From: a virus
Taxonomy: Duplodnaviria > Caudoviricetes
Length of the DNA stretch: 59,352 nt
Reading direction: 5' to 3' (one strand)
IMG/VR virus record: IMGVR_UViG_3300030406_001933
Coordinates: 1-59,352 of that record
Made by a program: the position numbers and the translations under genes. Positions 16,439 to 59,352 of this stretch are shown one piece after another. Each line of letters starts with the position of its first letter. Position 1 is the first letter of the stretch. Below the pieces are notes generated by a model. That model was not told the DNA's origin and searched no databases. It was given only the letters and a program-made list of their open reading frames with translations.

Positions 16439-16450
16439 AAAGGAGTGTCT

Positions 16451-16768
16451 ATGAAAGTTGTTGATTTACAAGCCCGTACCCCTGCGACAGGGGACAGGGA
16501 TAGGACAACATATATCATCAAGTCAGAAGAGGACTTCAGAGAGTTCATCAAGAAGTACGAGAAAGATGTGATGTGCGATTTGAAGTCTGTATCTGACTGG
16601 CAAGTTGTAGACAAAGAAGATGACTACAATGATATGTGGCAAGAAGAAGATGATAAGCTATACCCATCTGGGTACAAGCTTATGATTAACGAGTACGAAA
16701 ACAAACCCAATGTTATATCTTATCTCAAAGACAAGATAATCAACATTGAAACATTTTACTTATCGTAA
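16451..16768 (+). CDS. Hypothetical acidic protein between AAA+ and vWA genes
   Basis: ATG 16451 with AAGGAG SD. Confidence 0.7.
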   Translation: MKVVDLQARTPATGDRDRTTYIIKSEEDFREFIKKYEKDVMCDLKSVSDWQVVDKEDDYNDMWQEEDDKLYPSGYKLMINEYENKPNVISYLKDKIINIETFYLS

Positions 16769-16780
16769 AGGAGGAAGCTT

Positions 16781-44500: not shown

Positions 44501-47482
44501 TTCTTCAGCAGCAGCTGTTCCAGTGTAGACCTGACCTTTTTTCTTGTATTGTTCTAGTAATGGTCCATCAGTTAAACCATATCTGTTAGCTTTTCTTAAT
44601 AGATTTTGTATTCTACCATTTCTATCTTTACCTAAAGATACAGATGTAGACGCTGTAATATCAATATCACCACCAGCACCTTTCTCTGCCTTGACATCAA
44701 AAACTTTGTCACCAAGTAATCGTCTGTTTCTAACTTTGTCTATTTGTAATTGTACTATTTTCTTAATGAACTCATCATTGTAGCTTCTACCTGGTTGAGC
44801 ATTAGATAGACCCTCAATAAATAATGCAGCAGTTTTTTGTATTGCTGCTTTTTCTAAGTCAGTAAAATCAGAAACATCTAAGCCAGATAAGATTTTATTA
44901 ACATCTGGTTTAATAGTGCTTTTTCTTGCTGTAGGTTTTTCACTAAATAAAAGTTTAGTTATTGGACCTATGCCTTCAGGGTTATGTCTTGCAATTGTTT
45001 CAAGCACCTGTTCAATAGGTGCATTAGGCATATCCGCTACCGTTGATTCAAATAAGGCAGCAGCATTAGTTTCGTCATTGATTACTTTTTCGTAAGCATC
45101 AATTATTAATTTTCTAGAATCATCAGATATAGTTGGGTCGTTGTTAACGATACCCATAAAGGCATCTCTATTATATATACCCCTTAAAGCAAATGTGTCT
45201 GCTGGATCTGATAACGACTTGGCAATAGCATTAACACCTTCAGTACCAATATAGTCGTCTATCATATTTTGTAGAGCTATAAGTCTAGCCTGTTTTCTAG
45301 AGTACTTTTGGTTGTCTACTAAATCTTTTACCTCTCGTCTGAAAGATGCAGCTGCAGCTTTTATATCTGCAGGGTCAAATATTTCTTCAATAAACTTAAT
45401 AGAGCCTTTGTCTGTATCAATTATATCAGGTTTATTAGGATTAAACTTAGGATCAGATTCTAATAGGTCATTAATCTGGTCCATTCTTTGACCAATAGTT
45501 ACTGGCTCTGGTTTTAAATCTGGTTTAGGAGCATCTGGTGCACCTTCATCAGGTGTTGATACTGCTTCTTCTGCTTCTGCAGTACGACCTTCTTGCCTTG
45601 CTTTTGCCTCAGTTAGTTCTTGTTCCCTAACTTTAGCTTGCTCAGAAGAAAGAGCTTCATCTGCCTCAACAGTTTTATTGTTATTAAGAGTTTCTAATTT
45701 TGCATTAGCATCTTTAATTTGATCAGTTACATCTTTTAAATCTTGTTCATATGTTTCTGCTTTCTTAGCGTGTTTTTCACTTAGCTCTTTACCAGCTTTT
45801 GCTTGTTGGTTACGATATGTTTGTTGTCTTTGTAAAAGTTTCTTTCTTTTCTCAAGGTCTGATAAAGTAGATTGTATTTCTTCAGCAGTTTCAGTTTTGA
45901 CTTCTACTTCTTTTACATCATCACCTTCTACTTTTGGTTCAGTTTCTAATATATCTTGTTCAGCTTTTGTTTTTGGTGTTGCTTCTTCTGGTTTACCAAT
46001 AACAAGATTGTCCTCAGCATCTATCCTAGCTTGAATATCATTTAACTGAAGAAGCTTATCAATCAGTCCCTGTTCATTACCGTCTTTGTAATCTCTTAGG
46101 AATGCACCAACTAATTTTCTTTTTTGTAATGAAGCTGCTTCATTCTCTTTAATCTTAGTTTGAGTTTGTTGTATTTCAGCAGGATCTTTTTTACTAGGTA
46201 GTTCATCTCTTAATTTCTGTGTTTGAATATCTAGTGCGTCTGCTTCTTCAATAGCATTTCTAGTTACATATATATTGTCTAATACCTTACGAAGTTTTTT
46301 TGCTTCGTTTATTACTTGAGGGCTTACATCAGGAAACTCTGCTGCAGAGAAAACTTCATCATCAGTTCTTCCACCTTTGTTACCTGACATAAGATTATCA
46401 AACTTAGTTCTGTCAGAAGCTTCAAACTCATCAAGCAAGCCTTTATAAATTCTTTCTAATTGTGGTCGTACATTTTGGTCAATTAAATTTTGTATAACTG
46501 TTTTGTTTTCTGGAGTTGGATTCGTTTCAAAATTTTCTACAGCTTCAGTAAAGTTTGCTTCTTCTTGTGCTTTCAAAGCATTTTGAACTTCTTTATCTTT
46601 TTCTACAAAACTTTGTTTAAAATCATATTTACCATCTGCAGTTCTAGTTAGGTTCCTTCTGAATAAGGCTCCACCTGCAGCACCAAATAATCCACCCAAT
46701 GCTCCGCCAGCGACACCCCCTACACCAGCTGCAAACGCACCTTCTTTAAAACTATACTCATCTCTTTCACCAATACCTATATCTCTAAATTGTTCAGCAG
46801 CGTTATATCCAGCTTCAATACCACCACCTAGTACAGCCTCAACTTTTGCACCTGACTTACCACCTTCTTTGATTGCACCTACTAATAAATTTTTACCTGT
46901 TTGTTTTGCTGCGATTGCACCACCTTTGGCAGCCATTCCACCAACACCCATACCAATTAAGTTTACTGGGTCAAATACAGCTTTTCCTACATTGGCAGCT
47001 AATCCAGCAGCACCTGTTCCACCATCTTCATAAAAATTTGGTAGAGCATCGTAGACACGCTGTAATCTTGATAGCCTTGCTTTTTGAGCATCGGTTGCAC
47101 TTCCGCCTGTTGTGTACCAAGCTTCTTTAGCCATACTGGTAAAGTTCATAGATTTCCAACCACGGTCACTATAAAACTCTTCAATGGCTTCTTGAGGACT
47201 AGAGAATGTTATACCATCTCTGTCTTGAAAGAAATCATATACATCTTGAATAAATTCTGGATTTTGTAAAAGCCTTAGTGCATCTGTTTTTGACAGATCA
47301 CCTTTTGCATATTTTAAAGCACCCGTGTCTGGTCCAGTTGGATCTAGTGATAGCTCTCCATAGCCTCTAGATTTGATAAGACCTGTAAGATTTTTGTTTG
47401 CTACTTCAGGTGCATCACTACCAAATCCTAGATCATCACGAACTTCGGTTGGGTTATTTTCATTTAATATTTCATCTGACAT
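35519..47482 (-). CDS. Giant ejection / polyvalent protein (zincin peptidase plus ADP-ribosyltransferase-like domains)
   Basis: 3987 aa, no Cys seen; Gly/Ala-rich TM-like N- and C-terminal regions; VLHELGH...EFFA (~41690-42130); YHGT...GPGVYLA...GYDG (~38380-39230). Confidence 0.85.
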   Translation of the reverse strand: MSDEILNENNPTEVRDDLGFGSDAPEVANKNLTGLIKSRGYGELSLDPTGPDTGALKYAKGDLSKTDALRLLQNPEFIQDVYDFFQDRDGITFSSPQEAIEEFYSDRGWKSMNFTSMAKEAWYTTGGSATDAQKARLSRLQRVYDALPNFYEDGGTGAAGLAANVGKAVFDPVNLIGMGVGGMAAKGGAIAAKQTGKNLLVGAIKEGGKSGAKVEAVLGGGIEAGYNAAEQFRDIGIGERDEYSFKEGAFAAGVGGVAGGALGGLFGAAGGALFRRNLTRTADGKYDFKQSFVEKDKEVQNALKAQEEANFTEAVENFETNPTPENKTVIQNLIDQNVRPQLERIYKGLLDEFEASDRTKFDNLMSGNKGGRTDDEVFSAAEFPDVSPQVINEAKKLRKVLDNIYVTRNAIEEADALDIQTQKLRDELPSKKDPAEIQQTQTKIKENEAASLQKRKLVGAFLRDYKDGNEQGLIDKLLQLNDIQARIDAEDNLVIGKPEEATPKTKAEQDILETEPKVEGDDVKEVEVKTETAEEIQSTLSDLEKRKKLLQRQQTYRNQQAKAGKELSEKHAKKAETYEQDLKDVTDQIKDANAKLETLNNNKTVEADEALSSEQAKVREQELTEAKARQEGRTAEAEEAVSTPDEGAPDAPKPDLKPEPVTIGQRMDQINDLLESDPKFNPNKPDIIDTDKGSIKFIEEIFDPADIKAAAASFRREVKDLVDNQKYSRKQARLIALQNMIDDYIGTEGVNAIAKSLSDPADTFALRGIYNRDAFMGIVNNDPTISDDSRKLIIDAYEKVINDETNAAALFESTVADMPNAPIEQVLETIARHNPEGIGPITKLLFSEKPTARKSTIKPDVNKILSGLDVSDFTDLEKAAIQKTAALFIEGLSNAQPGRSYNDEFIKKIVQLQIDKVRNRRLLGDKVFDVKAEKGAGGDIDITASTSVSLGKDRNGRIQNLLRKANRYGLTDGPLLEQYKKKGQVYTGTAAAEEALLDAKLDSRSETGREEADFEKFAYIDANTGLKTKRKTSKVDGKRVENATYGFEADKVVVIDKALTQIESSIRSLDKGGDAYITANELYQMSRDILKVANITFVPPRGRANELLTIDVKDVTSTPEGFKEFPGNSDGTKSWVYKLVSDTDIHNKVQKSGKELVDGKYEKISNLTYERIEAPEGTAGIGDAVTGKVYQSKSDIPADNVTDTTATYKQVRQALKDLRKRFTHSTPKEKAGNENLVYKSGKNYNIALAQRDLRAINKSLSELRNQAESPLVKLQIKGLLNDKKRIKAQIKDLGGDPRAKTLNRKALANIKKAHMEGVAEDKAIAKQKIEEYTGKPLDEVDEEIAQEIVDQDVNAEAIQLKMKEELNELVSELTSGQISKEDYDLGVSSIVNRMIQLGKESPDTKPVGRNKPDVIDFKGYEVDVNNHFKIKNIDGIADAQNIFFLGKRIGRIMKRGDVYEVHSNELDTVHRFASSDFAKRSLPEMFEIQVLQAGKSGKLATSNLTDTGSTKNFRRKDHTKTNTYENAAEEPQSNPVDDTVKPTEVEQNADPRLNTFLSQYLPKVPKGRALSIYLETGEYANTIRTPSQKQLDGSSVFDVLKKQSKENYIIGTVDANADGALAKLESFEPMTDIGQAFRVVDKTPKQKQITNTKGDISMEPGAVGLQRASNVKLEDKLIPNDAEFKSRHKTVGDVLTSIEILEQTPWSKLKSKGDVQAVIRQLDLLNGIVERHIPRGIKLPNRSRETSWQKFATIMSTANVNQGDINAVLMVMSRMAGTELDAASPNFAIVKGEQMRGAYFGPGSGPNDGSMQNIIGLDLNNINANGLPPSITVLHELGHWAYNNILDASHKKQFWNTIGKYVTDDGVDLGALKARLPGDPHIGNELSSPSEFFAQQFVQYAIAKNKAGTYDEVMSMWKRIGRTVNETIRRWFGVGGDEATPATHLSAIDPDLIPLFQRIFPDRDPVNRYANLLSKFANADQKTKYRLSVLMDLDEVRSKIDKALDGSHEELLSALGGRGLETDRPSAATVLNSFLRNARGRDKVTKRFGNPTRSRKGKHNRKRFFEEGELVDIDGSVPRHRNQSDYHTFTKITDAYWKIINHAKKMRDPRFIDADKKAGKYSQATPGQYLGALEATAGKGERGAIDVANAREIQRLIKEQAADDGNYNVDAEDIMSMQLGTTDIQGGGNKSLTALVMENAAANQTPDNIDQLAVTRALAFDVLANIENAEKRLRRQLHNIFGEMDGFDITTSVGRDEQVYVKGAKNKSTKRFRSLNAKRKRDNVNRQLTGRIKQIEDLEKQADSIMKKTLGKQGQSSTLKQSPKEMSIREIADETKVSKKQTARTKDLTAELVQKLLSDPEVPEFSVIQRSIEADPNITRLSNGRVATTPGDFVQLLQEGYNQGYQARMDYAMYVLRGQPDGLNLMPRKAPVKRMVMKEVEQSKGVSGENGIPARTPVYIKEFLRKVTHRDPLVENNARTFTYRLLNILGKTQFDKNASNNFLTMDDVGGLFPESYFGANYGTFEHANNGEVLNIVRRTARKIAQNLKSGKSKIEYPNTIASRKPVGREYTVIDEVGYLMYHSAIDEEGKININNAYQEALELGEARAVKISESFNVPNPKGAAVKWFIDGFNDILSQKTTKRELYNNLSGSALLEDSLDSVTEHSAYLLNKMIGNKKLRQRYRYLTYFGDMHYDAASVHPIKRSVDQTGNSGTLHLAKKYASETISSFSDAADLSHREFLNARSTDNLLDYVFYHGTPNGDAFNKYKGARGPKPSNADSLYGPGVYLAKDPTASETYARFTHKNSLKAMVDSDDPDVIAITDEIINDIMENNYKLNDISRAYAGRDIRKTTLNRMDEMEAGIVEPVDGDPAYTMLQDAQVYERLMLKNEELFERLGQFTKVRRNPKVVPMFVRADNMFDFSDNATYSVGSGEPNDIGFFMKELQTTGLFKDQEMTRMLNEFRLQGELDGSDFYQNLVDTLTTSGRSEAEAKTLITRAFNQLGYDGFLITEPHPVTNDVVDAIVIHNNKSLRTVDADVEDSVVNPEFASNMNDKHQSLNGQLLQDVVELNKKLEDSDYVNIGSKAQKLGMPDALQGFVKKTLRKEAIDIDDVEVIEKNYSTNFISENSAHLRKIGAAWLGNLIKPKDGPGIYQMHAADLAKRIQPVMQMLQKLPDYGNPVKRYINKTAPFFQAIPLLGRAVPEKAVAPPASHKRIIRAMRAGDISNLNDAEKQIANHLVGLFKTELNDLHNLGIPVGDVTLRNGTKYYVPQIWNADIVRENPKAFVESLQRFITREKRMEGKNVDPREIAEIASNMMNRIIDTDGRIDVDVDARTSGITSDPFYQRFITLNKDTYPEFADYLVDDLEGIITKYFDKTTRKKLMAKNFGAGGHGLNAYTVTAKLGVEGAADILSENKLITMPRSTGDDVLEVSHIVIPTPNQIERAHLKEILRDIQASLINTNTNTVHARVDAARRRLLALTDTGSLNPGQMANLKIRIDAVVNGLKDFPGGMSEGSEGFIRSINDVLERRPMSDSRMLNNVSKKMRAFNSVSLLGWTTLTSIPDMALPLIRTGNFKGWMKAWKDVTLGSPEYRQAAKDIGVGVENLIHDRMTHMAGDGSQQFQHAFFYGTGLQSWTNFMREVSAVVGYNTFKAEADMAQKLIAKGQIDSAAYRKSLRLLKRYGLEAYAMPGSRRMADMKTVAKDDNFRYATMRFVNETIFTPDPNDVPLWAQHPIGSMVFQLKSFPLMMMRMVFGEGGVVDEAWKYKNFKPMIALLTVGGGFGMMANTIKDYTLQRGGEDGREAALRERKFSKTAVGETFKVFTGVEGEDADRWLQQNLGKDADKFLGHYLEGIVALGGLGLLAELFFNTAAQADNRYYGAARMMSAIGGPSTGVLFDAAANVGGGIELARESIPGVEGDGSNSSERAFIRTLLRRIPVAGGNKVFTEGGTDLLAGEQTGRRSQSEGGNVFDAMKASDFDKLFAKFK

Positions 47483-47542: not shown

Positions 47543-50152
47543 CTACTTAGCCATAAGCAATTCCTTAATACCTGTTCTATCATCGTTTGCGAATGCCATA
47601 CCCGCGTTTAGATATTGTTTTATAAATAGTTCTAGTTGAACTTTTGTAGCCTGAGAGTTAATAACTTTTTGTTTATTGTTTAATACGAAAGCATCTGGTT
47701 CGTGCATTTTTCTTATAAACTCTCTTATATTACTAGCACCACCAAAGCCACCCATTGTTAGCCCGTTGTTTGAAGCTACGGTTGCCATATTATATCCTGG
47801 GCTTACACCTTTGTCGTGTATGTTGTAGTTATAAAGTATTCCGTTAGCCATAGCATTTATTATTTCATTTTGTTTAGTTTTTGGTATTTCATTAAATGTT
47901 TCAAATTGTCCTAAATTATGAGTTTTGTAAGTCATTTTGAATATATCAAAGAAAGGTGTATTACCTAAGTTTGGTCCTGTAGTTCCACTACTAAACAACT
48001 TAGCAACTCCGTTTTCAGTATAGATATTATTAATTACAATTTGATCAGATTTTTTATCAGTCAATAAGAAAGAAGTGTTTCCTTGACCAGCAGGTGACAT
48101 ATCTCCTATTGTAGTTTTATAAGTATACGCTTTATTACCGTGAACAGAATTGAGGTGTTGAGCTTGAGCTTTTATATCTCCTTTGAAACTTAGGTTGTTA
48201 ACAGAAGCAACATTATCGCTGTTGAATATAGCATTGTTTTCACCAGTAGGTACAATATCATTTATTTCTTTGAGTCCTTTTTCGCTAGTCAACTGGTCTA
48301 TCTTACCTAGTAAGTATTCTCTGTACTCTTTTACATTTGTAACTTTTACATCACCAAAAGTATGTTCTATCGCCAAGCCTGTATTGTTTGAATCATCAAA
48401 AGCTCCTAGGTTATATCCAGTTAAATCTCTTGATATATCTTTTTTAATCATCAATAACTTATCTTTATATTCATTTATAAGCCTTGCTACATTAGGATCA
48501 TTCCAAATAACTTGCGTTTCACCATTAGCAAATTTAATTTCTGTTTTAGCTGACTTAGGTAATTTAGTTATTAGTTCTGTAATTCGTGATTCCAGTTTTT
48601 CAATCTCTTTATTATATTCAATTCCATATGCTTTTATAGAAGTTCCAGGTGGCACTCCATCTGTAAACAAATTAGTGTATTGTTGTTTTGCAGTAGCTCT
48701 TGCATCTGAATAATTTTGAAGATTAAGTTTACTTGCAATCTCTTCTGCTAATACCAACGCATCTTCTGGTCTTTCATTTACTCTATCTTTTACAGCATCA
48801 AGTTCTGCGTGTAGATTATTCATAACCTCTAAAGGAAGATAATATTTAGATTGTAGTGCACCTATTATGTTTTTTGTTGGACCATTTAAGTATGGATTAT
48901 CCTTTTCTTCACCGAAAGCAGTAAAGAACATCATAATGTTTTCTTTTGATTTATCTTGAGTTATGTTTGCTTCTCCATATGCAGTAGCGGCTGCTTGCCC
49001 TTTTGCTTTATTATATTCATAGTTTTGTTGATAGTTTAGATTTAGCCAAGCATTATAGTTGTTGTATCCAATGATATCTCCTAATTTTTTATTTAAAACT
49101 AATTGACCTTTATAATCACCTTCACCTTCAACAAATAAAGTCTTTTCATCAAAGCCTAATTTTCTTGCTGCTTCTCTATACGCTTGCTCCCACAAAGTAC
49201 GAGTAAGCTTCATATTTCCATTTTTATTAGCTTCGTGGAACTTTTTCCAAGTGTCTGTTTCTTTCATAGCATCGTGGAAAGTTGTAGCAACCTTGCCATT
49301 GTATACTGATTTTTGATTTGTAAAGTGAGCTTCTATTCTTGTTTTAGTATCTTTAACAAGCTCTGGAGTTATTGATCTTAGGTCTATACCAGAAGCCAAC
49401 AATATGTTCTCTACAAACTTGTCTTTACCTTTTTCATCTCTTTGAACATAATTTATATATTGCTCTGTACTTACTCCCTTAAGGAATAGTTCGCCTAATG
49501 TTTTTGAAACTCCTGCAGAAACTTTATTTGCATTTGAAGTTTTTAATTTAGCTTTTAAACCTTCAACCAACCATTTAGGTTGACCAGAAAAATTCATATC
49601 TATTTGTTGTTCTGTTTGATTAGTAGAGGCAAAGTTTTCCTCATTAAAAATATTATCTATTTCTTCTTTTCTTTTTCTTTGTTGTGCTTTATTCCATTTA
49701 CTCCTATCATCCCAACCCATATCAGAAAACATCTTGGTATTAGTTTCTCTATTAGGACCTAGAAAGCCTTTTTCACTTATCATACTTTCTTTCCATTCCT
49801 CAAATGTACCATTAACACTTACGGAATCATCAAAAGCTTTGTTTCTAGTTTCTATCTGTTCTATGTTTTTTGTAGCTTGTGCTAATTGATCATCAAATAC
49901 ACCTTGGTTGTGAGCCTTGTGCATTGACTCTATCATCTGGTCACTAGCTAAAGATTGACTATAAAGAAAGTTACCACCAGTTATTTCGTGCCTTTGTTTT
50001 TCTAAATCAGTAATAGATAACGGACGCCCAGCTTTTCTTTCTTGATCCATAAAAGCTTGAAAAGCATCTCTATTCTTTTTTCGTTTGTCTATATTCCTTT
50101 GCTCTGCATCTCGCAGATTTTGTGATAGACCGAATCCAAAACTAAGTGCCAT
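47543..50152 (-). CDS. Internal virion / ejection protein
   Basis: 869 aa, helical, Cys-free, immediately upstream of the giant protein. Confidence 0.7.
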   Translation of the reverse strand: MALSFGFGLSQNLRDAEQRNIDKRKKNRDAFQAFMDQERKAGRPLSITDLEKQRHEITGGNFLYSQSLASDQMIESMHKAHNQGVFDDQLAQATKNIEQIETRNKAFDDSVSVNGTFEEWKESMISEKGFLGPNRETNTKMFSDMGWDDRSKWNKAQQRKRKEEIDNIFNEENFASTNQTEQQIDMNFSGQPKWLVEGLKAKLKTSNANKVSAGVSKTLGELFLKGVSTEQYINYVQRDEKGKDKFVENILLASGIDLRSITPELVKDTKTRIEAHFTNQKSVYNGKVATTFHDAMKETDTWKKFHEANKNGNMKLTRTLWEQAYREAARKLGFDEKTLFVEGEGDYKGQLVLNKKLGDIIGYNNYNAWLNLNYQQNYEYNKAKGQAAATAYGEANITQDKSKENIMMFFTAFGEEKDNPYLNGPTKNIIGALQSKYYLPLEVMNNLHAELDAVKDRVNERPEDALVLAEEIASKLNLQNYSDARATAKQQYTNLFTDGVPPGTSIKAYGIEYNKEIEKLESRITELITKLPKSAKTEIKFANGETQVIWNDPNVARLINEYKDKLLMIKKDISRDLTGYNLGAFDDSNNTGLAIEHTFGDVKVTNVKEYREYLLGKIDQLTSEKGLKEINDIVPTGENNAIFNSDNVASVNNLSFKGDIKAQAQHLNSVHGNKAYTYKTTIGDMSPAGQGNTSFLLTDKKSDQIVINNIYTENGVAKLFSSGTTGPNLGNTPFFDIFKMTYKTHNLGQFETFNEIPKTKQNEIINAMANGILYNYNIHDKGVSPGYNMATVASNNGLTMGGFGGASNIREFIRKMHEPDAFVLNNKQKVINSQATKVQLELFIKQYLNAGMAFANDDRTGIKELLMAK

Positions 50153-50154
50153 AA

Positions 50155-51057
50155 TTAAACCTCCGCACCAATTAGATTACCCGCAGAATCATAATACAAA
50201 GGTTGTCCTAAATAATTGGTTTGTGGTTGATTGTTTATAGTTCCACTACCCACGATAGTACTATCTGGGTTTTTGTTAGTATTAAAGTTACCAGTAATTC
50301 CTTTTGCAAGATCATCTAAACTATTAGAAAATGATTTATTACTTGCTGTTGCAGACTTCATAGCCGTATCAAACATATTACTCAATCCTGTTTGGCTTCC
50401 GCCATAGTTGGTTTGTGCTGTGCTATATAATCCTTTTTCCATATTAAATTGTGCCTCATAAGGATCTGTAAATTGTTTTGTAAATGCTGCTCTAGATGCT
50501 TGGTCTAGATTCATTCTTTCACTAGCAAATTTAAGTGCGTTTACTTTTGCTTGTATATCAGCTTTCTGTAGTTCAGGTGCATACTTGGCAATTACATCAG
50601 CTTGAACCTTAGCATCTAATGTATCAGAATCAGCACCACCTAACCTTGCTAGGTTATTTGCTTTTGCTTTACTTGCAGTAAGTTCTGCTAGTTTGAATAT
50701 GTCAGTCCTATAAGCATTGGATAAATCAAACATATCACGCATAATATCTTCTTTGCTTGGTGTGTATGGTACACCTAGATATTCATTAACTTGTTTAATT
50801 GATTCGGCTAAATTAGATGATTGAACTAAAAGCCTATCTCTTAATGCTCTTTGTTCTGCATCTCTTCGTAAAGCAAGATTTTGTTTGAATTGTAAGTCTT
50901 GACCTTGTTGTCTATAGATAGCTTCAAGCTGTGCACGATCTTGTGACTGAGCTAAGTAATCACTACTCGCATCAAAACCACTGCCTAAAATATTAGCAGT
51001 CAATGGGTCCATACCCATCTTGGTTCCTATTGCACTAAATACACTTCCAAAGCTCAT
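50155..51057 (-). CDS. Internal virion / ejection protein
   Basis: 300 aa, Gln/Ala-rich helical, Cys-free, amphipathic N-terminus. Confidence 0.7.
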   Translation of the reverse strand: MSFGSVFSAIGTKMGMDPLTANILGSGFDASSDYLAQSQDRAQLEAIYRQQGQDLQFKQNLALRRDAEQRALRDRLLVQSSNLAESIKQVNEYLGVPYTPSKEDIMRDMFDLSNAYRTDIFKLAELTASKAKANNLARLGGADSDTLDAKVQADVIAKYAPELQKADIQAKVNALKFASERMNLDQASRAAFTKQFTDPYEAQFNMEKGLYSTAQTNYGGSQTGLSNMFDTAMKSATASNKSFSNSLDDLAKGITGNFNTNKNPDSTIVGSGTINNQPQTNYLGQPLYYDSAGNLIGAEV

Positions 51058-51069
51058 CTGTTATCCCTC

Positions 51070-51810
51070 CTAAGCAATAATAATTCCGTTCCCAAATCCA
51101 GTTCTCCTGTTCACCAAGTTAGAAGATATTGGACCTCGTGCCACAAACGGTGCGTTCGGGTCATTCGGAACGAAAGAGATAACCTGTTCTTTCCTCTCTG
51201 TTGTTGGAACAATATAGTTCACATCTGGTGCCACACTTTCTGTTGGAGAAACTGGTGGTACATTAGGATCTGCTTGTAAATCTGGATTACCTGTTGGTGT
51301 TGGTAATGTACCTTGTTCTGGAGTATATGTTGGTCCAAGCGTTGTTGCTAGTTGACCTTCTCCAGATAATAAAGCTCGTCTACCAAAACTTGTTTCACCT
51401 GTTCCAACTTCACCACCAAATGTTTCTTCACCTGTCATCTGTGTTGGTACTTGACCTGACTCTGGTAATGTTCCTTCACCTGTTGCGAGAGAGTCCCTTC
51501 TCTCCATAGACGGATCTGTCCCTGGTGCCGTAACATTAGTTCCTACAAATGATCTATAGACAGGTCTTTCTGGTTTCTTACCACCAGGATATAAAAGATC
51601 CCCAGACTTGCCCATAGCTGAATATTTTTTTGCTTCTTCTGGATTTGCAATAATTGCTTGTAGACGAGTTCCTGCAGTTAATGGGTTAAGACCCATAGTC
51701 TTGCCATATTCTGATTCATTTACTACTTGTTTGTTTCCTAGCAAGTCAGTGTATTCAACTTGGTTTATTACCTGTTGACCACCGCCGCCGCCTCCGCCGC
51801 CGCCGCACAT
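51070..51810 (-). CDS. Virion protein with Met-Cys-polyGly N-terminus
   Basis: MCGGGGGGGGGQQ...; the only Cys is residue 2; ends RRTGFGNGIIIA. Confidence 0.75.
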   Translation of the reverse strand: MCGGGGGGGGGQQVINQVEYTDLLGNKQVVNESEYGKTMGLNPLTAGTRLQAIIANPEEAKKYSAMGKSGDLLYPGGKKPERPVYRSFVGTNVTAPGTDPSMERRDSLATGEGTLPESGQVPTQMTGEETFGGEVGTGETSFGRRALLSGEGQLATTLGPTYTPEQGTLPTPTGNPDLQADPNVPPVSPTESVAPDVNYIVPTTERKEQVISFVPNDPNAPFVARGPISSNLVNRRTGFGNGIIIA

Positions 51811-51842
51811 ATTATTTGCCCTCCATAATTAATTTGTTCATA

Positions 51843-52631
51843 TTAAAACCTTGTGTAAACTCCTTTACCGAAACCTTGTCGTCTTTTTTTGTCGTCACGA
51901 TCGTCAAAGCCTCCGAAGTTAATGTCATTTTTTGTAGTTCCTATTATGTTATTTGTACCTATTGTACCTATATCTTTAGATTTTGTAGTCCCTGTGTTAG
52001 TGTTTGTAGGCTTATCATCAAAAAATTGTCCTACAAATTGTTGAGAGAACCTTGGGCTTTCTTGCATAGCTTTTGCCATACCCACTTCCCTAGCTCTAGA
52101 TGCACCATATGCTAAATCTGCAGTTAGGGCAGCTTTACCTAATACATTCTGCATAGCTGTCGCACCCGCTTTGGAACCACCTATAGGACCAGTGAGTAAA
52201 TTTAGTGCTGTTTCTTGTGGAGAAGTACCAAATTTATTACCTGGAGATAGAAAATCTATAACACCTCTGGCTACATCTACACCCATACCAAGCACTGGAT
52301 TAGCCATATAAGTAGCAGCTCTAAAGCCTTGTTCTACTACAGCTTTACCTAATTTATTATTATCTGGTCTAGGAGTTGTACTACCATTACGGAATGTTTC
52401 ATCACGATCATCAGGTGCATAGTTTAGGTTAGTAGTCCCTTGAACTATATTTGTTCCAGGATAGTTTTTAGGAGCTGATGTAGGATTACCAATTGGGTCA
52501 AGTGTTTCTTGTCTAATATCCCCAGGTTTATAACCTGTCATAGGATTATCATTTGGCTTGAAGTTGGCTACAGGAGCTACAACTTTTTCTATGTTATCAT
52601 CTTTGCTGCCTGATCCGCCACCGCCACACAT
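51843..52631 (-). CDS. Virion protein with Met-Cys-polyGly N-terminus
   Basis: MCGGGGSGS...; the only Cys is residue 2; ends RRQGFGKGVYTRF; TAATG-coupled to the GNAT. Confidence 0.75.
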   Translation of the reverse strand: MCGGGGSGSKDDNIEKVVAPVANFKPNDNPMTGYKPGDIRQETLDPIGNPTSAPKNYPGTNIVQGTTNLNYAPDDRDETFRNGSTTPRPDNNKLGKAVVEQGFRAATYMANPVLGMGVDVARGVIDFLSPGNKFGTSPQETALNLLTGPIGGSKAGATAMQNVLGKAALTADLAYGASRAREVGMAKAMQESPRFSQQFVGQFFDDKPTNTNTGTTKSKDIGTIGTNNIIGTTKNDINFGGFDDRDDKKRRQGFGKGVYTRF

Positions 52632-53077
52632 TATACTATTCCTTTTTTATAAATCGCTCCTTGTTTTGTATATCCCATTCTGGTCATTACTTTATCATAT
52701 TGCTCGTTAGGAGCACCAGCATATGTCACAGAGTAATTCACTTCTTTGCACCCTTTTTCTTTCGCCCACTTTTCAAAGTCTTTGAGTAACTTGAAACCTG
52801 CCAATTGACTACTTTGATCAGTAAAGAGTAACTCTTCTTGAGCCAAGATATCACTACCCCATAGATAGTTTGTAATGTATCCAAGAAGGTATGCCATAGG
52901 CTTATCGCCTTTGTAATATACTCTGAAGTACTTATTTGGATTTCCACAAAACCTGCTTGCATATTCTCGTACAATGTTTTCATCGTAGTGAGTATCTTTG
53001 TATATACTCGTTCCGTGCATTTCTTTAGCAAGTGGTAGTAGTGTTTCAATATCTTCATATGTGCCTTCCTTTATCAT
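52631..53077 (-). CDS. GNAT-family N-acyltransferase
   Basis: IKEGTYEDI...AQEELLF...GFKLLKDFEKWAKEKGCKEV...RMGY: typical GNAT motif A/B layout. Confidence 0.85.
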   Translation of the reverse strand: MIKEGTYEDIETLLPLAKEMHGTSIYKDTHYDENIVREYASRFCGNPNKYFRVYYKGDKPMAYLLGYITNYLWGSDILAQEELLFTDQSSQLAGFKLLKDFEKWAKEKGCKEVNYSVTYAGAPNEQYDKVMTRMGYTKQGAIYKKGIV

Positions 53078-53078
53078 A

Positions 53079-54302
53079 TTAGTAATACGCTATTCCAAAG
53101 CCACCACGACCGCCGAGAGAAAACCCTCTGTCTGCTTTGTAAACTGCATTACCAAATGTTCCAAACCTTTCTTCTCTAGGTTCTCCACTTCTATCAGTGA
53201 ACCTACGAAGATAATCTATACCAGCTAATTCTTGTGGTCTAGTTAGATTACCATATATGTTTTTACCAGATGCCATAGCTGGTCCTAAATTACTTCCTAA
53301 ATATTGTGCTGCACCTTGTGCACCTAATCCTAAATTAAGTGTAGACCCAGGTAATTGTATTCTTGGTACATTCATACCAGATGTATTTTCAAAATAACTT
53401 GGAATCTTAGGTGGATCCATAACCGTTCCTAACATAGTTCCTAAGCTACCACCCAAAGAACTACCAGCTACTGCACCTAAGTTAGCACCTGCTATTGTTG
53501 AACCAACCATAGGTATTTTGTTTACAAGGTTTGCTGCGTTAACTGCAAAACCGCTAGTGTTACCTGCAGCTGTTTGAAGTAATGATTGGTTTGTTATGTT
53601 AGCAACTGGGTTCACATTTGTAGGGATAGTAAATCCACCCTTCGCAGCTGTACCAACTGAACTCAAATCAACTACATTACCTCCACTAACAACCTGCATA
53701 TCTCCAGGGAAAACAGAACCTGCTGGAACATCTTTTGGTATAGTCGTTGTTCCCATAAGTTTACCACCAATATAAGAACCTGCTGCAGTTCCTGCTGCAT
53801 TCATCAATGCTTGTCCCCAAGTTCCTCCAGCACCTTTCGTGGCTAGACCAGATCCAACCGCTGCACCTATCGTAGACGCAGTACCAGCAGATATTGAAGC
53901 AGGTAATAAGTATGGTGCAGCCATAGCCGCAGCTGCTGTTACAGCAATTCTACCTATTGGGCTTTTTACAATTTTTTTGAATACTCTTGATATACCTCTA
54001 AAGATTTTACCAAAGAAAAAGTGTTGAGGACTATTAGGATTCATTGGGTCGTAATTACCCATCTCTGATCCTGCAAACATAGCCATTGGATTACCACCTT
54101 CTTTGATGGTCTTTAACATTAGCTGTGCAAGTAATGCCTGTCCTTCTTTATCTTGAAATATTTTAGGATGTACTACAAACTCGCCTGGTTCTAGCTTTGC
54201 ATCAATAGTATCTTTACTAGCCATCTGATCAAACTCTTGTTTTGCAACAAAGTCTTTTTGATCAAATCCTCCAAAGTTATCTACATAATCTTTAAATGCC
54301 AT
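53079..54302 (-). CDS. Internal virion protein with amphipathic membrane-active helix
   Basis: DTIDAKLEPGEFVV N-domain, FFFGKIFRGISRVFKKIVKS helix, Gly/Ala-rich TM segments, ends GRGGFGIAYY. Confidence 0.7.
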   Translation of the reverse strand: MAFKDYVDNFGGFDQKDFVAKQEFDQMASKDTIDAKLEPGEFVVHPKIFQDKEGQALLAQLMLKTIKEGGNPMAMFAGSEMGNYDPMNPNSPQHFFFGKIFRGISRVFKKIVKSPIGRIAVTAAAAMAAPYLLPASISAGTASTIGAAVGSGLATKGAGGTWGQALMNAAGTAAGSYIGGKLMGTTTIPKDVPAGSVFPGDMQVVSGGNVVDLSSVGTAAKGGFTIPTNVNPVANITNQSLLQTAAGNTSGFAVNAANLVNKIPMVGSTIAGANLGAVAGSSLGGSLGTMLGTVMDPPKIPSYFENTSGMNVPRIQLPGSTLNLGLGAQGAAQYLGSNLGPAMASGKNIYGNLTRPQELAGIDYLRRFTDRSGEPREERFGTFGNAVYKADRGFSLGGRGGFGIAYY

Positions 54303-54311
54303 AATATCACC

Positions 54312-56150
54312 TTATACAGATAGTGTAGCTGCTGCTATACCAACCTCCAAACTATTTGCTCCAGAAGTATTTGTTACTACTAACTCTAATCGTCTACCTG
54401 TTGTTGTTCCATCAATCTCAATTGTTGTCGGCATATTGACAGAAGCTCTGGTAGTAGAGGAAGAGAATGTACTTCCAATTGTTGAACCGTCTACAGATAA
54501 TTGAATAGTACAAGTACCTGCTGCGAGCTTATGGGTGATACCATCTAATCTTAATTTCTGTTTCCATATATTAGAAACAAAGTATGTTTTGTTAGTTACG
54601 GTTACAGAAGCATCTTCCCATACATTAAAAAATGAAATAGTAGATGTAGCAAAGATATCAGGTAATTGGTTAGTAGGTATCTTCGCACTACTATCTAGTG
54701 AAGCAACACCATTAACTGCACCTCTATCTGTTTTCGGTAACACTGAAGATAAGTCTAGCGTACCATATTCTAATGCCGTACCAGTTCCATTAACACGAAC
54801 ATATTGTGACGCGTTGGAAGCTAAGAAAGTAGGCAGTGAGCTTTCTGGTGATGTTTCTAACCACTGAGTACCAGTGTAAAACTTTAAGATATTAGGAACT
54901 TGTGATGTATCTAACCATAGATCTCCTGTTACAGCACCTGATGGTGTTGATATACCAGAAGTAATGTTTGCTTTGTTAGCAAGACTTGTAGATAACTGAT
55001 TTACTTTGTTCTGTGGTATCTCGTTGTTTTGTATATTTAGTTTATTGTAATTAATAAATCCTTGTTCGTTTGTATATTCATCTTCAAACATCAAACCAGC
55101 AATTGTTTTTTGTGCTTGGTTTTCAACCGTAATAACTACAACCCTATCGTTCTGAGCTAATGAACTTGTAAATGTTATTGTTGCTGTTTGTGGTGAGTTA
55201 ATATAGTCAGCACCACCACCTGGTTCCTGTAAGATACCATTTTTCCATACCAACAAAGTTTCGTCACTAGAGTGAACGAATGCTACAGAGTTAGTAGATG
55301 TACTAACTAATGTATCTTGTCTACGGAAGTTAGTTACTGATTGAGAACGCACGCTGTAGATTGTGTATTTATCTGCTAACGCAGTTCCTGTTGCAGTTGA
55401 TATCGTAATAGTATTTGCAGCAGTGTTTGTTGTGTATTCAGCTGCAGATCCAGTTGTGGCTAGACCAAGTAAAACTCCGTTTTTATAAATTACTATGTCC
55501 TCTGTGTTCTGATCAAATGTGTATGGAATCACATTGGCACTACTAGCAATAGGAGCAAGAGTAGAAGTAGCAGTAGCTTGAGTACCATTGGCAGGTGGAG
55601 TAATGGTTACTGAAGGTGCTACGGTGTATCCACCTCCTTGTGCAGTTGAAGCTATGTTAACTGCAGTTACAACTCCAGCAGTAAGAACAGCAGTGGCAGT
55701 TGGTGCTGATCCGTTGATAGAGTCTTGAGGTGTAGTAAAAGAAACGGTAGGGACAGAAGTGTATCCAGACCCACCACTCGTTACGGTGACTGTCTGTACT
55801 CCTGTTGTAATTAATTTATCTTGTCTATTGAAAAAGAAAGGACCTTCAACGGTTCCAACATTCGCTCCAGATGGACCTCGTAATGAAGAAATTGTAATTA
55901 GATCTTGCCAACCATCATCTGCTCCAGGATATGTACCAACCCTATATTGTAGACCATTAACTGTGTCTACTCTCATTTCAATAGGACCTTGGAATGTTCC
56001 TGATTCGTTAAACAGAACCGATAATAGTTCAGCGATTGTTTTATCACCAAACTCTGCTGTGTTTAGATATCTGATGATGTTCTCAAAATCAGTATGTATA
56101 TTACCTGATGATACATAGTTTTGAGGATGTTGTTGTCTAAGTCTTGCCAT
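54312..56150 (-). CDS. Tail fibre/spike-type structural protein
   Basis: 612 aa Thr/Ser-rich; GGSGYTSVPTV / GGGYTVAPSV repeats, (Y/W)KNG(V/I)L repeats, NGVASLDSSAKIP motif. Confidence 0.75.
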   Translation of the reverse strand: MARLRQQHPQNYVSSGNIHTDFENIIRYLNTAEFGDKTIAELLSVLFNESGTFQGPIEMRVDTVNGLQYRVGTYPGADDGWQDLITISSLRGPSGANVGTVEGPFFFNRQDKLITTGVQTVTVTSGGSGYTSVPTVSFTTPQDSINGSAPTATAVLTAGVVTAVNIASTAQGGGYTVAPSVTITPPANGTQATATSTLAPIASSANVIPYTFDQNTEDIVIYKNGVLLGLATTGSAAEYTTNTAANTITISTATGTALADKYTIYSVRSQSVTNFRRQDTLVSTSTNSVAFVHSSDETLLVWKNGILQEPGGGADYINSPQTATITFTSSLAQNDRVVVITVENQAQKTIAGLMFEDEYTNEQGFINYNKLNIQNNEIPQNKVNQLSTSLANKANITSGISTPSGAVTGDLWLDTSQVPNILKFYTGTQWLETSPESSLPTFLASNASQYVRVNGTGTALEYGTLDLSSVLPKTDRGAVNGVASLDSSAKIPTNQLPDIFATSTISFFNVWEDASVTVTNKTYFVSNIWKQKLRLDGITHKLAAGTCTIQLSVDGSTIGSTFSSSTTRASVNMPTTIEIDGTTTGRRLELVVTNTSGANSLEVGIAAATLSV

Positions 56151-58745: not shown

Positions 58746-59352
58746 TTACGATAGAGCAGACCAGTTCTTAATTCTGTGGTGTACTTTAGAGTGGGTCATT
58801 TCTAATCCACACTCTGACATATACATATGTTTAACACCATCAAAATCGTTATTTTGGATATCTCTTACGAGTTGAGTATCTCTACCCGCCATATAACGAT
58901 AGTTCAAGTGATTCATATCTAAGATAAGCATCTCTTGCGATAGTGCACTAACCTGACGGAACATAGGGTGCATATATACAAGAAGATCACCAGCAAATGT
59001 AGTGTATCTTGTAAATGCTACGCCATATGCGTTGTCAATCTGCACAGGTTGCCATCTGTTTTTACCTAGTTCCATCATATTAGTGATACAACGAGGACCC
59101 GCAAAGGCTACCTTTTCGTTTGATCCAAAAGCAAAGATGTCCTCAATTAAGAATTTATCAAACTCTTTCTCAGTCATCTTGTTAGAAGAAGTTGTAGCAG
59201 ATGCACAATCAATTACATTTGTAATCATACTGAACAATCCACCAGTAGTTCTTTTTGGATTTGCAGTTGAGCCGTTAGTTTCACCTCTAGTTCCAAAGAA
59301 AAAAGCTCTTTCAATGTCACCCATATGTAATTTTAGGGCTTTTGTAAGTTGC
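58746..59352 (-). CDS. Major capsid protein, C-terminal part
   Basis: In-frame continuation of 1..704: DIERAFFFG...TTGGL...YTTFAGDLLVYMHP...ECGLEM. Confidence 0.9.
   Translation of the reverse strand, partial: QLTKALKLHMGDIERAFFFGTRGETNGSTANPKRTTGGLFSMITNVIDCASATTSSNKMTEKEFDKFLIEDIFAFGSNEKVAFAGPRCITNMMELGKNRWQPVQIDNAYGVAFTRYTTFAGDLLVYMHPMFRQVSALSQEMLILDMNHLNYRYMAGRDTQLVRDIQNNDFDGVKHMYMSECGLEMTHSKVHHRIKNWSALS
59224..59352. repeat. Terminal direct repeat, right copy
   Basis: Matches 1-129 with two mismatches (59301, 59330). Confidence 0.97.

Follow-up and report, generated by a model that had tools for sequence, protein, structure and literature searches.

Sole N-terminal cysteines of ejection proteins beside a GNAT-fold gene in a marine short-tailed phage

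The ejection proteins of a marine, short-tailed phage, known from a 59,352-nucleotide stretch of DNA (IMG/VR record IMGVR_UViG_3300030406_001933; hereafter the window), are purged of cysteine save for the first-residue cysteine of the small, outer-membrane-type ones, which are encoded beside a GNAT-fold gene. This rule can be checked in sequence and holds from this uncultured phage to T7, and also in Roseobacter phage CRP-810 and several metagenomic lineages. It hints at a chemical modification or linking of the membrane-piercing proteins at their tips. The literature searched yielded no account of a "Met-Cys, sole cysteine" rule among small ejected proteins.

Organization of the ejection operon

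On the minus strand, the genes run from the capsid gene through those for proteins of 99, 237, 497, 612 and 407 aa to the GNAT gene, and then to those for proteins of 262, 246, 300, 869 and 3987 aa. The GNAT gene, small and on the same strand as its neighbours, follows the tail genes and precedes that of the first ejection protein, which is the IVP-A slot. The features of the locus are as follows.

53079–54302, minus strand: 407-aa Gly/Ala-rich protein, Cys-free, just 5' of the GNAT gene
52631–53077, minus strand: GNAT-fold gene of the acetyltransferase family, 148 aa, in the IVP-A (T7 gp13) slot and first in the ejection-protein operon (phrog_1249; AF2 fold)
52629–52633, minus strand: TAATG stop/start overlap from the GNAT gene to the 262-aa frame (read from the sequence)
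51843–52631, minus strand: 262-aa ejected-type protein, start MCGGGGSGS, Cys2 the sole Cys, C-terminal RRQGFGKGV
52614–52628, minus strand: Cys2 codon and four Gly codons of the 262-aa protein (read from the sequence)
51819–51824, minus strand: GGAGGG, Shine-Dalgarno-like box 8 nt 5' of the 246-aa frame (read from the sequence)
51070–51810, minus strand: 246-aa ejected-type protein, start MC, nine Gly and QQ, Cys2 the sole Cys, C-terminal RRTGFGNGI
51778–51807, minus strand: Cys2 codon and nine Gly codons (GGN tract) of the 246-aa protein (read from the sequence)
50155–51057, minus strand: 300-aa ejection-block protein, Cys-free
47543–50152, minus strand: 869-aa ejection-block protein, Cys-free, IVP-C-like by position
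35519–47482, minus strand: 3987-aa giant protein, Cys-free, IVP-D-like by position and size

The last A of the GNAT stop codon TAA (52633–52631) is the first A of the ATG of the 262-aa frame, and an AAGGAA Shine-Dalgarno-like box lies 7 nt 5' of this start. The 246-aa frame opens with MCGGGGGGGGGQQ (MC, nine Gly, QQ). In both frames the ATG is the first ATG, GTG or TTG past the upstream in-frame stop and, since the first possible start is already Met-Cys, there is no signal peptide ahead of Cys2. This agrees with the preliminary description of the locus, in which the GNAT gene was TAATG-coupled to the MCGGGGSGS protein and followed by a gene with an MC-polyGly start; translation beginning elsewhere would have spoken against it, and neither Met-Cys frame holds an earlier ATG, GTG or TTG. 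A blastn comparison of positions 50000–54400 of the window (from the GNAT gene to the 300-aa gene) with the phage collection gave no match.

Cysteine content of the ejection proteins

Across the 6,071 aa of the ejection-block proteins, Cys occurs just twice, as the two Cys2 residues; the 3987-, 869-, 300- and 407-aa proteins contain none. With Cys at 1.1% as in the window, the probability of meeting no further Cys in 6,069 residues is about 7e-30. Counting thus upholds the earlier remark that Cys2 is the sole Cys among the six non-enzyme proteins of the block, and BLASTP likewise upholds the remark that the two Met-Cys proteins are otherwise dissimilar: the only stretch common to both is the short C-terminal RRxGFGxG (best E 0.15). 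The 407-aa protein also ends in a GFG-type C-terminus (GGRGGFGIAYY).

Neither Met-Cys protein matched Pfam (E <= 0.1), the T7 gp14 family PF24072 included, or PHROG (E <= 0.01). No Pfam or PHROG match was obtained for the 3987-aa protein either, and its identification as an N4-like virion RNA polymerase was rejected as lacking such support. Homologues are present in two metagenomic lineages, L003 and L091, where the 262-aa protein is 66% identical and starts MCGGGGSAS; the Gly tract of the 246-aa protein is two residues shorter in both (MC and seven Gly in L091).

Family and predicted fold of the GNAT gene

The profile match and the predicted alpha/beta fold both place the gene in the GNAT superfamily. 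It matches phrog_1249 "acetyltransferase" (E 1.1e-17), falls just short of the cut-off for Pfam PF00583 (19.8 against 20.7 bits), and its family profile matches solved GNATs of the PDB (E 8.4e-12). The AF2 model (pLDDT 89.3) matched 412 PDB chains in Foldseek at E <= 0.001, and all matches listed are GNATs. The best of them is 1tiq (E 2.6e-7, TMq 0.76); the model is closest to generic GNATs (PaiA, polyamine acetyltransferases), with NAT chains also among the matches.

The motifs associated with CoA binding are degenerate. The canonical R/Q-x-x-G-x-G/A CoA pyrophosphate loop past strand 4 is not recognizable as such in the window GNAT, whose clade has DQSSQLAG/QLAGFK with a two-residue deletion where relatives have PExRGxxxA. 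The Tyr of motif B is kept in about half of the relatives and is Met in the window clade. In the gp13 family, too, the CoA-loop glycine is not conserved. No match was found between the window GNAT and the T7 gp13 families PF11090 and phrog_308, and hhalign aligns the two families only weakly (15% probability, E 0.0018); the link between the window GNAT and gp13 is therefore one of fold, not of sequence. Both types occur together in one T7-like contig, G002, where a gp13 homologue is accompanied by a window-like GNAT (64% identity) lying far from the ejection genes; the two GNAT types are therefore not simple equivalents. Complex prediction of the GNAT with CoA and residues 2–60 of the 262-aa protein returned no answer (score 0.00) and has no bearing either way.

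Association of GNAT and Met-Cys genes among relatives

The survey covered 26 GNAT clusters, T7-like gp13 loci and 12 cultured phages, and adjacency was counted on 24 of the clusters. In 7 of these 24, an MC start is found in the gene immediately 3' of the GNAT, compared with 14 of 413 other called genes (a background of 3.4% or less; Fisher p 4e-5), and Cys or Gly is found at position 2 in 10/24 against 33/413 (p 2e-5). The pairing is genuine: it is conserved and greatly exceeds the background rate. In CRP-810 an MCGGSPPPPP protein lies directly 3' of the GNAT; in L115 the GNAT is followed by an MCFGGGGS and then an MCSGGS protein; in the L104/L125 cluster (21 loci) both proteins downstream of the GNAT start MCGG; and an MC protein also adjoins the GNAT in L027, L153, L037 and the L096/097 cluster. 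Since the MC-start proteins are mutually unrelated across lineages by BLASTP, the conserved part is the N-terminus itself. The preliminary description had proposed looking for MC-Gly starts downstream of GNAT homologues; exact MCGG is found in 0 of 4 contigs with a window-like GNAT beside the RNA polymerase gene, the MC proteins there being MCF or MCS.

Adjacent small proteins without an MC start often have MG instead (phiKMV MGKKVKK, SP6 MGVVKK, L138 MGGLFGS). GNATs of the same family also head ejection or small-virion-protein genes that lack Cys altogether (ECBP5, phiKMV, SP6, L098, L132, L158 and L160), and the role of the GNAT therefore cannot depend on Cys. In a single case, phiRIO-1, a non-GNAT substitute occupies the slot and the IVPs have no Cys. 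The GNAT tree is poorly supported (4 of 23 inner branches well supported) and the MC-neighbour label needs four changes on it, a number as low in 74 of 500 shuffles. Such a tree is compatible with the MC-adjacent state having arisen once, and the clusters are not independent events.

Comparison with T7

T7 gp14 starts MCW (MCWAAA) and gp6.7 starts MCF. These are the only cysteines among the five T7 ejected proteins (2,448 aa), and no other of the 56 T7 CDS starts MC. Gp13, encoded 4 nt upstream of gp14, is modelled by AF2 with pLDDT 93, and its top Foldseek match is RimI (5isv, E 2.5e-5), an N-alpha-acetyltransferase that acts on a protein N-terminus. Both points made on T7 in the preliminary description, the MC start of gp14 and the GNAT-like fold predicted for gp13, are thereby substantiated. 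The MC start of gp14 is kept in 29 of 33 T7-like IMG/VR loci, the rest being two truncated loci and two with a longer first-start frame, as well as in Kayfunavirus, Ghunavirus and Troedvirus.

Like the window proteins, gp14 and gp6.7 are small, ejected, Met-Cys proteins with no further Cys in an otherwise Cys-free ejection set, and gp14, like the 262-aa protein, comes directly after a GNAT-fold gene. They share no sequence similarity with the window proteins, however, and the N-terminus of gp14 is a hydrophobic Ala/Gly-rich helix whereas the window proteins have poly-Gly and then polar sequence. According to the 2024 cryo-EM study of T7 (PMC11784390), gp14 and gp6.7 form the outer-membrane part of the ejectosome, gp6.7 is modelled from residue 2 and gp14 from residue 4, residues 2–15 of gp6.7 wrap the portal barrel of the mature virion where the N-terminus of gp14 also lies, and there are 12 copies of gp6.7 and 8 of gp14. 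No word beginning with "acyl" occurs in the accessible main text of that article (PMC11784390). A literature search on acylation of gp14, gp6.7 or internal virion proteins found nothing relevant, one "acyl" match (PMC8811829) being set aside as concerned with lactones.

Comparison with other known systems

A GNAT in the IVP-A slot is an already known class, and that part of the finding is ordinary. The window has the arrangement of this class, a small GNAT-fold gene directly before the internal-virion or ejection genes, but its GNAT is in phrog_1249, unlike T7 gp13 (PF11090, phrog_308). In the accessible parts of the relevant articles, IVP-A is a non-structural assembly protein (Hardies 2016, PMC4819975), the acetyltransferase likeness of the slot gene is already stated (Hardies 2016, PMC4819975; Bischoff 2019, PMC6775973), and T7 gp13 is absent from the virion and needed for infectivity (Hardies 2016, PMC4819975, citing Kemp 2005). 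The words cysteine or acyl do not appear there in the context of IVP-A.

CRP-810 (OR671924) is the only related cultured phage found. It has the same order of capsid, 99-aa, tail, GNAT and MCGG-protein genes, and its counterpart of the 497-aa tail protein is 48.7% identical. Where the window has two MC proteins, CRP-810 has a single one (621 aa, MCGGSPPPPP), and the second Cys of its ejection block is internal (gp37 Cys324).

N-terminal acyltransferases of GNAT fold (RimI/J/L, NatA-type, N-myristoyltransferase) have the fold of the window GNAT in common. As with RimI/J/L-type enzymes, its substrate would be a small N-terminal residue bared by Met removal, although the model carries no signal of a specific subfamily such as RimI/J/L or NatA. 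GNAT-fold lipidation of ribosomal peptides is known from GdvG-type enzymes. The window proteins also resemble bacterial lipoproteins (Lgt/Lsp/Lnt) in having a mature-type N-terminal Cys and a Gly/Ser-rich tether, and C-G-G-G-G-S is much like the mature N-terminus and tether of those proteins. The lipoprotein pathway was rejected for both proteins, as Met-Cys is the first start and a signal peptide with lipobox is impossible; any lipidation would therefore have to be cytoplasmic and independent of Lgt/Lsp/Lnt. Toxin-activating acyltransferases (HlyC, CdiC) are likewise encoded by small genes beside a membrane-active protein, and CdiC reportedly lipidates CdiA before delivery. Enzymes of this type acylate internal lysines from acyl-ACP, and among the Foldseek matches listed for the window GNAT no fold preference for them is seen. 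In cyanopodophage A4, two ejection proteins are joined by a disulfide between gp27 Cys1715 and gp26 Cys5, seen by cryo-EM (PMC12002296); the likeness to the window is limited to a near-terminal Cys (Cys5), the predicted window Cys being exactly at position 2 of both proteins.

Possible roles of the N-terminal cysteine

Our best reading, which we hold tentatively, is N-terminal acylation of the Met-Cys ejected proteins by the GNAT. The window GNAT would be the IVP-A factor of this phage, a small acyltransferase-fold protein made late and heading an operon whose products would be stored in the capsid head and, on ejection, form a trans-envelope channel; the two MCGGGG proteins would come first among them as the small ejected proteins and would correspond in function to T7 gp6.7 and gp14. 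Methionine aminopeptidase removes Met before Cys as a general rule, and the host enzyme would accordingly cut off Met1, so that Cys, as a 1,2-aminothiol, would become the first residue, carried on a flexible stretch of Gly. While the proteins are still in the cytoplasm and not yet packaged, the GNAT may then move an acyl group from acyl-CoA or acyl-ACP to this N-terminus, either by direct N-alpha-acylation or by thiol capture followed by an S-to-N shift, an acetyl and a longer chain seeming about equally likely. The capped or lipidated tip could aid docking to the core and, after ejection, engagement of the host outer membrane. Such a reaction would be in keeping with the predicted GNAT fold and with an exposed Cys on its Gly tether, and fatty acylation of protein N-termini is known for two residues, Cys and Gly, which bears on the MC and the MG starts alike.

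The Cys-free phages with a GNAT and the degenerate CoA motif of the window GNAT stand against acylation. An N-terminal disulfide, the chief alternative and in our view somewhat less likely than acylation, accounts for much of what was observed and explains the terminal sole Cys about as well. The ejected proteins would be linked end to end by their N-terminal Cys (N-to-N homo- or heterodimers) and leave the head as an unbranched thread, which a terminal Cys suits; the other ejection proteins would be Cys-free to avoid wrong disulfides, and the GNAT would be the usual IVP-A assembly factor, adjacent through synteny. The A4 disulfide (PMC12002296) is a precedent, and the N-termini of T7 gp6.7 and gp14 both lie at the portal barrel (PMC11784390). 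Exactly two ejection-block cysteines are present in the window, T7, CRP-810 (gp39 Cys2 and the internal gp37 Cys324), L115, L104/L125 and L037, in L159 a Cys near the end of one protein (Cys543 of 547 aa) precedes Cys19 of the next, and there are none in ECBP5, phiKMV, SP6, P22, phiRIO-1, L098, L132, L158 and L160. A strict rule of paired cysteines was nevertheless rejected as general, as there are three sole-Cys2 proteins in each of L135 and G002, and L096/L101 and L139 have one in the parts that were covered. The unequal T7 copies (12 gp6.7 to 8 gp14; PMC11784390) and assembly in a reducing cytoplasm also argue against a disulfide, which leaves unexplained the MG starts of equivalent small proteins and the persistence of a GNAT-fold gene beside MC proteins.

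The degenerate CoA-binding features of the window GNAT and gp13 would suit a non-catalytic chaperone, in which case Cys2 would serve to pack against a neighbour, or to bind a metal, where portal and core meet, and would be neither modified nor linked. The description of IVP-A as a non-structural assembly protein (PMC4819975) and the position of gp6.7 residues 2–15 around the T7 portal barrel (PMC11784390) are in line with this. Yet a packing contact would account neither for the purging of Cys over thousands of residues while it is kept at position 2 of unrelated proteins, nor for the flexible poly-Gly that follows it, and we think such a role rather improbable. Very improbable is that the MC start is a quirk inherited from one old ejection-protein lineage, or chance, and has no present function. 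A single origin would be consistent with the GNAT tree, but Cys2 is invariant while the next residues and the whole proteins diverge past recognition, the MC background is 3.4% or less, and all other Cys are purged from the MC ejection sets of the window and T7. For acylation of the Cys-Gly(n) tag by the GNAT, as the preliminary description had it, the conserved adjacency (7/24 against 14/413) and the compatible fold speak in favour; the same-slot GNATs of Cys-free phages, the degenerate CoA motif, the Met in place of the motif-B Tyr and the comparable fit of a disulfide tether weaken it.

Implications for podovirus ejection

The wider claim that short-tailed phages including T7 possess a signal-peptide-independent lipidation of their own, in which the IVP-A GNAT would fatty-acylate the N-terminal Cys or Gly of proteins of the gp14, gp6.7 and gp7.3 types in the cytoplasm, seems doubtful to us. 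If true, the virion would be pre-loaded with lipid-tipped penetration proteins, a bacterial-virus counterpart of the myristoylated VP4 or mu1N of non-enveloped animal viruses. The sole-cysteine rule bears on how the ejected proteins of podoviruses enter or cross the outer membrane and on the role of the long-known gp13/IVP-A factor; whether the tip should carry a lipid or an acetyl group or be tied by a disulfide, the ejection mechanism would gain a new component.

Late operon and two Met-Cys proteins

The full virus record (59,352 bases, G+C content 37.5%) carries a podovirus-type late operon on its minus strand, in which a gene for a 148-aa acetyltransferase-fold protein (GNAT) is followed by two ORFs that start with Met-Cys (MC).

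Features of the late operon
8163-9785, minus strand, large terminase
6220-8127, minus strand, portal
58746-59351+, minus strand, capsid gene, running across the record ends
After the capsid gene and ahead of GNAT, minus strand, ORFs of 99, 237, 497, 612 and 407 aa
53079-53130, minus strand, C-terminal end of the 407-aa protein (...GGRGGFGIAYY)
52631-53077, minus strand, GNAT
52633-52629, minus strand, TAATG overlap of the GNAT stop and the 262-aa ORF start
After GNAT, minus strand, ORFs of 262, 246, 300, 869 and 3987 aa, in that order
51843-51890, minus strand, C-terminal end of the 262-aa protein (...RRQGFGKGVYTRF)
51070-51115, minus strand, C-terminal end of the 246-aa protein (...RRTGFGNGIIIA)

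The 262-aa ORF starts MCGGGGSGS and the 246-aa ORF starts with MC, nine Gly and QQ. In each frame the ATG is the earliest possible start and has a Shine-Dalgarno-like box 7-8 nt upstream. Cys2 is the only cysteine in each of these proteins and the 3987-, 869-, 300- and 407-aa proteins contain none; given the window Cys frequency of 1.1% (ORFs of at least 100 aa), the probability of no further Cys in the 6,069 residues of the ejection block is about 7e-30. BLASTP finds no relationship between these two MC proteins beyond MCGGG and a C-terminal RRxGFGxG motif. Coupling, starts, cysteine counts and BLASTP therefore fully confirm what the preliminary description had observed, namely a GNAT coupled to the first of two otherwise dissimilar MC-polyGly proteins, with Cys2 as the only Cys of the non-enzyme ejection-block proteins.

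The Gly run of the 246-aa protein (51778-51804) is a length-variable GGN repeat, with nine codons in the window vs seven in a 95%-identical relative (L003, 7232-7969). A GFG-type C-terminal motif is common to the consecutive 407-, 262- and 246-aa proteins and may be a shared docking or incorporation signal. A 562-aa protein of locus L098 terminates in RRSGFGSFV, and small gp6.7-like proteins of other lineages terminate in T(L/I)LGG. The Cys-free 3987-aa ORF (35519-47482, minus strand) has no match in Pfam or PHROG and is IVP-D-like (IVP, T7-type internal virion protein) solely by size and position.

GNAT in the IVP-A position

By four measures the 148-aa protein is a GNAT. It matches phrog_1249 (E 1.1e-17); it scores 19.8 bits against PF00583, slightly below the 20.7 cut-off; a 20-sequence family profile matches solved GNATs (E 8.4e-12); and among the Foldseek matches listed for its AF2 model (pLDDT 89.3) all are GNATs, including PaiA (1tiq; E 2.6e-7, TMq 0.76) and polyamine, aminoglycoside and N-terminal acetyltransferases, with no subfamily prominent. 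In most members of the family alignment, PExRGxxxA follows strand 4 and the next helix contains FEKWA. The window clade retains FEKWA, replaces the RG loop by DQSSQLAG and carries Met at the motif-B position that is Tyr in roughly half of its relatives, so that catalysis by the window protein is putative.

A GNAT in this position is already known and is not new by itself. The T7 internal-virion-protein operon has been defined as A, B, C and D after tail tubular B, with IVP-A (gp13) termed a non-structural assembly protein, and both T7 IVP-A and a syntenic phiRIO-1-like gene match acetyltransferases (Hardies et al. 2016, PMC4819975). A GNAT adjoining cobavirus IVPs "could correspond to gp13 from T7" (Bischoff et al. 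2019, PMC6775973). The GNAT-like fold proposed earlier for T7 gp13 is borne out by our AF2 model (11 IMG/VR homologues; pLDDT 93.1), for which only GNATs are among the matches listed, RimI (5isv) being first (E 2.5e-5). Profile-profile similarity between the window GNAT and gp13 families is weak.

Met-Cys starts among metagenomic relatives

A family-alignment search of IMG/VR gave 80 loci in 26 clusters at 60% GNAT identity, each represented by whichever member had the longest run of genes downstream, with ORFs called mechanically from the first ATG, GTG or TTG. In 24 clusters a gene lies at most 40 nt downstream of GNAT, and in 7 of them that gene starts with MC; of the 413 other genes, called greedily, 14 do so (Fisher p 4e-5, the clusters being related and not independent). 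Eight of these 14 are themselves sole-Cys2 small virion-type proteins, and their exclusion gives p = 9e-7. Within the DNA covered, 11/26 clusters encode at least one sole-Cys2 small protein. The GNAT tree is too poorly resolved for counting independent origins and contains one well-supported clade of 8 without an MC neighbour.

Both downstream proteins start MCGG in the L104/L125 cluster (21 loci; some members with a spurious upstream extension), and a gp14-like protein with MC[IF][ST]A is found in the L096/097 cluster (10 loci). L115 encodes MCFGGGGS (190 aa) and MCSGGS (178 aa) proteins followed by Cys-free proteins of 214, 493 and 1843 aa; further starts are MCIGGGEP (L027), MCFSAPSRPAPPPP (L153, 60 aa), and MCDREIYK and MCQNPFSKPKPPPP (L037). 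Homology of the MC carriers in these clusters to those of the window was not detectable. Conservation lies in the N-terminus.

Met-Cys starts in T7 and other cultured phages

Twelve cultured phages were inspected (T7, ECBP5, CRP-810, four other Studiervirinae, phiRIO-1, phiKMV, SP6 and P22). In T7, gp14 indeed starts with MC (MCWAAA), as had been stated, and the only other MC start among 56 CDS is that of gp6.7 (MCFSPK); apart from these two Cys2 residues, gp6.7, gp7.3, gp14, gp15 and gp16 (2,448 aa) contain no cysteine. The gp14 MC start is found in 29/33 T7-like IMG/VR loci found with gp13; two of the remaining four are truncated and two have a longer first-start ORF under the ORF rule used, one of them identical to T7, where the annotated start is MCW. 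In Kayfunavirus, Ghunavirus and Troedvirus, gp14 starts MCEPVSI with Cys2 as sole cysteine, and the annotated ICP3 start is MKMCDPVS. In T7 cryo-EM (PMC11784390), residues 2-15 of gp6.7 and the gp14 chain from residue 4 onwards lie at the portal barrel, and the two proteins are shown to form the outer-membrane channel; the text covered makes no mention of their modification or disulfide bonding.

The search for cultured relatives yielded CRP-810 alone (48.7% identity in the 497-aa tail protein); after GNAT it encodes a protein of 621 aa with the start MCGGSPPPPP. The window (14294-18718, plus strand; phrog_249, E 9.5e-59; phrog_1576/17276) and CRP-810 also share a CobS/CobT-like gene pair, annotated in CRP-810 as cobaltochelatase subunits. 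phiKMV ORF29 (L172 2316-2612), the virion protein directly after GNAT, and T7 gp7.3 (L054 736-1035) both start MGKKVKK, in which a polybasic stretch comes after the N-terminal Gly.

Possible roles of GNAT and Cys2

Two readings survive, N-terminal acylation of the MC proteins and a terminal disulfide tether. Acylation by GNAT is a tentative reading, with a somewhat less than even chance of being right, in which acetyl and a longer chain are about equally probable. Cys and Gly, the two residues known from other systems to be fatty-acylated at protein N-termini, together account for position 2 in 10/24 GNAT-adjacent genes vs 33/413 others (p 2e-5). Every MC-protein genome examined also has a gene for a GNAT-fold protein, either of the phrog_1249 type or gp13; in most cases this gene shows translational coupling to an MC or MG protein. 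The closest structural match of gp13 among those listed acts on a protein N-terminus as an N-alpha-acetyltransferase. The CGGGGS of the window protein resembles a mature lipoprotein tether, although for the window MC proteins the lipoprotein pathway as such is excluded because there is no room for a signal peptide.

This adjacency and co-occurrence uphold part of the earlier proposal that GNAT acylates the Cys-Gly tag; simple enzyme-substrate pairing is weakened by members of the same GNAT family ahead of Cys-free small virion proteins or IVPs. Such is the case in ECBP5 (MSMSKPK; IVPs of 201, 714 and 1287 aa), phiKMV (MGKKVKKVLGK) and SP6 (MGVVKKAF), all with 0 Cys in the IVPs, and in L098, L132, L158 and L160. 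The ejection proteins of P22 and phiRIO-1 also have 0 Cys, so Cys-free ejection proteins are general and Cys2 is a lineage-specific addition. In a T7-like marine phage contig (G002; L169 6274-7385, 10875-11255, 15843-16091; L093 2332-2757), a gp13 homologue (phrog_308, E 7e-37; PF11090) occupies the IVP-A position and is followed by a gp14 homologue starting MCFAAIGG; two additional sole-Cys2 proteins (MCFMKSPKMPAPPPPP and MCSTMST) bring the MC proteins to three, and a window-like GNAT (64% identity) lies far from these homologues, beside the RNA polymerase gene.

A disulfide tether, with IVP-A non-catalytic or otherwise occupied, is possible but rather unlikely. A disulfide between ejection proteins is seen in cyanophage A4 (PMC12002296), and the Cys count of an ejection block is in many cases exactly two or zero, the CRP-810 block having two, the second internal. 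In L159 the only cysteines of the block lie at facing termini, Cys543 in a protein of 547 aa (third gene downstream of GNAT) and Cys19 in the following one of 856 aa (fourth gene). Since terminal Cys would leave a linked pair unbranched, the pair could thread the tail channel. A strict pairing rule is, however, contradicted by three Cys in L135 and G002 and one in L096/L101 and L139 (parts covered). A non-covalent role of Cys2 or GNAT is improbable, and the absence of any function very improbable indeed.

According to the P22 record (L174 1370-2059), host OpdA removes the first 20 residues of the ejection protein gp7, and a Gly-rich KGGKGG stretch begins at the residue after the cut; gp7, gp20 and gp16 have no Cys.

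The open literature searched yielded no description of the sole-Cys2 rule, of its occurrence in T7 or of the poly-Gly variant. The new part would be the N-terminus of the proteins after GNAT, of which there may be prior mention. The main reason to pursue the finding is that it can be tested at once in T7.
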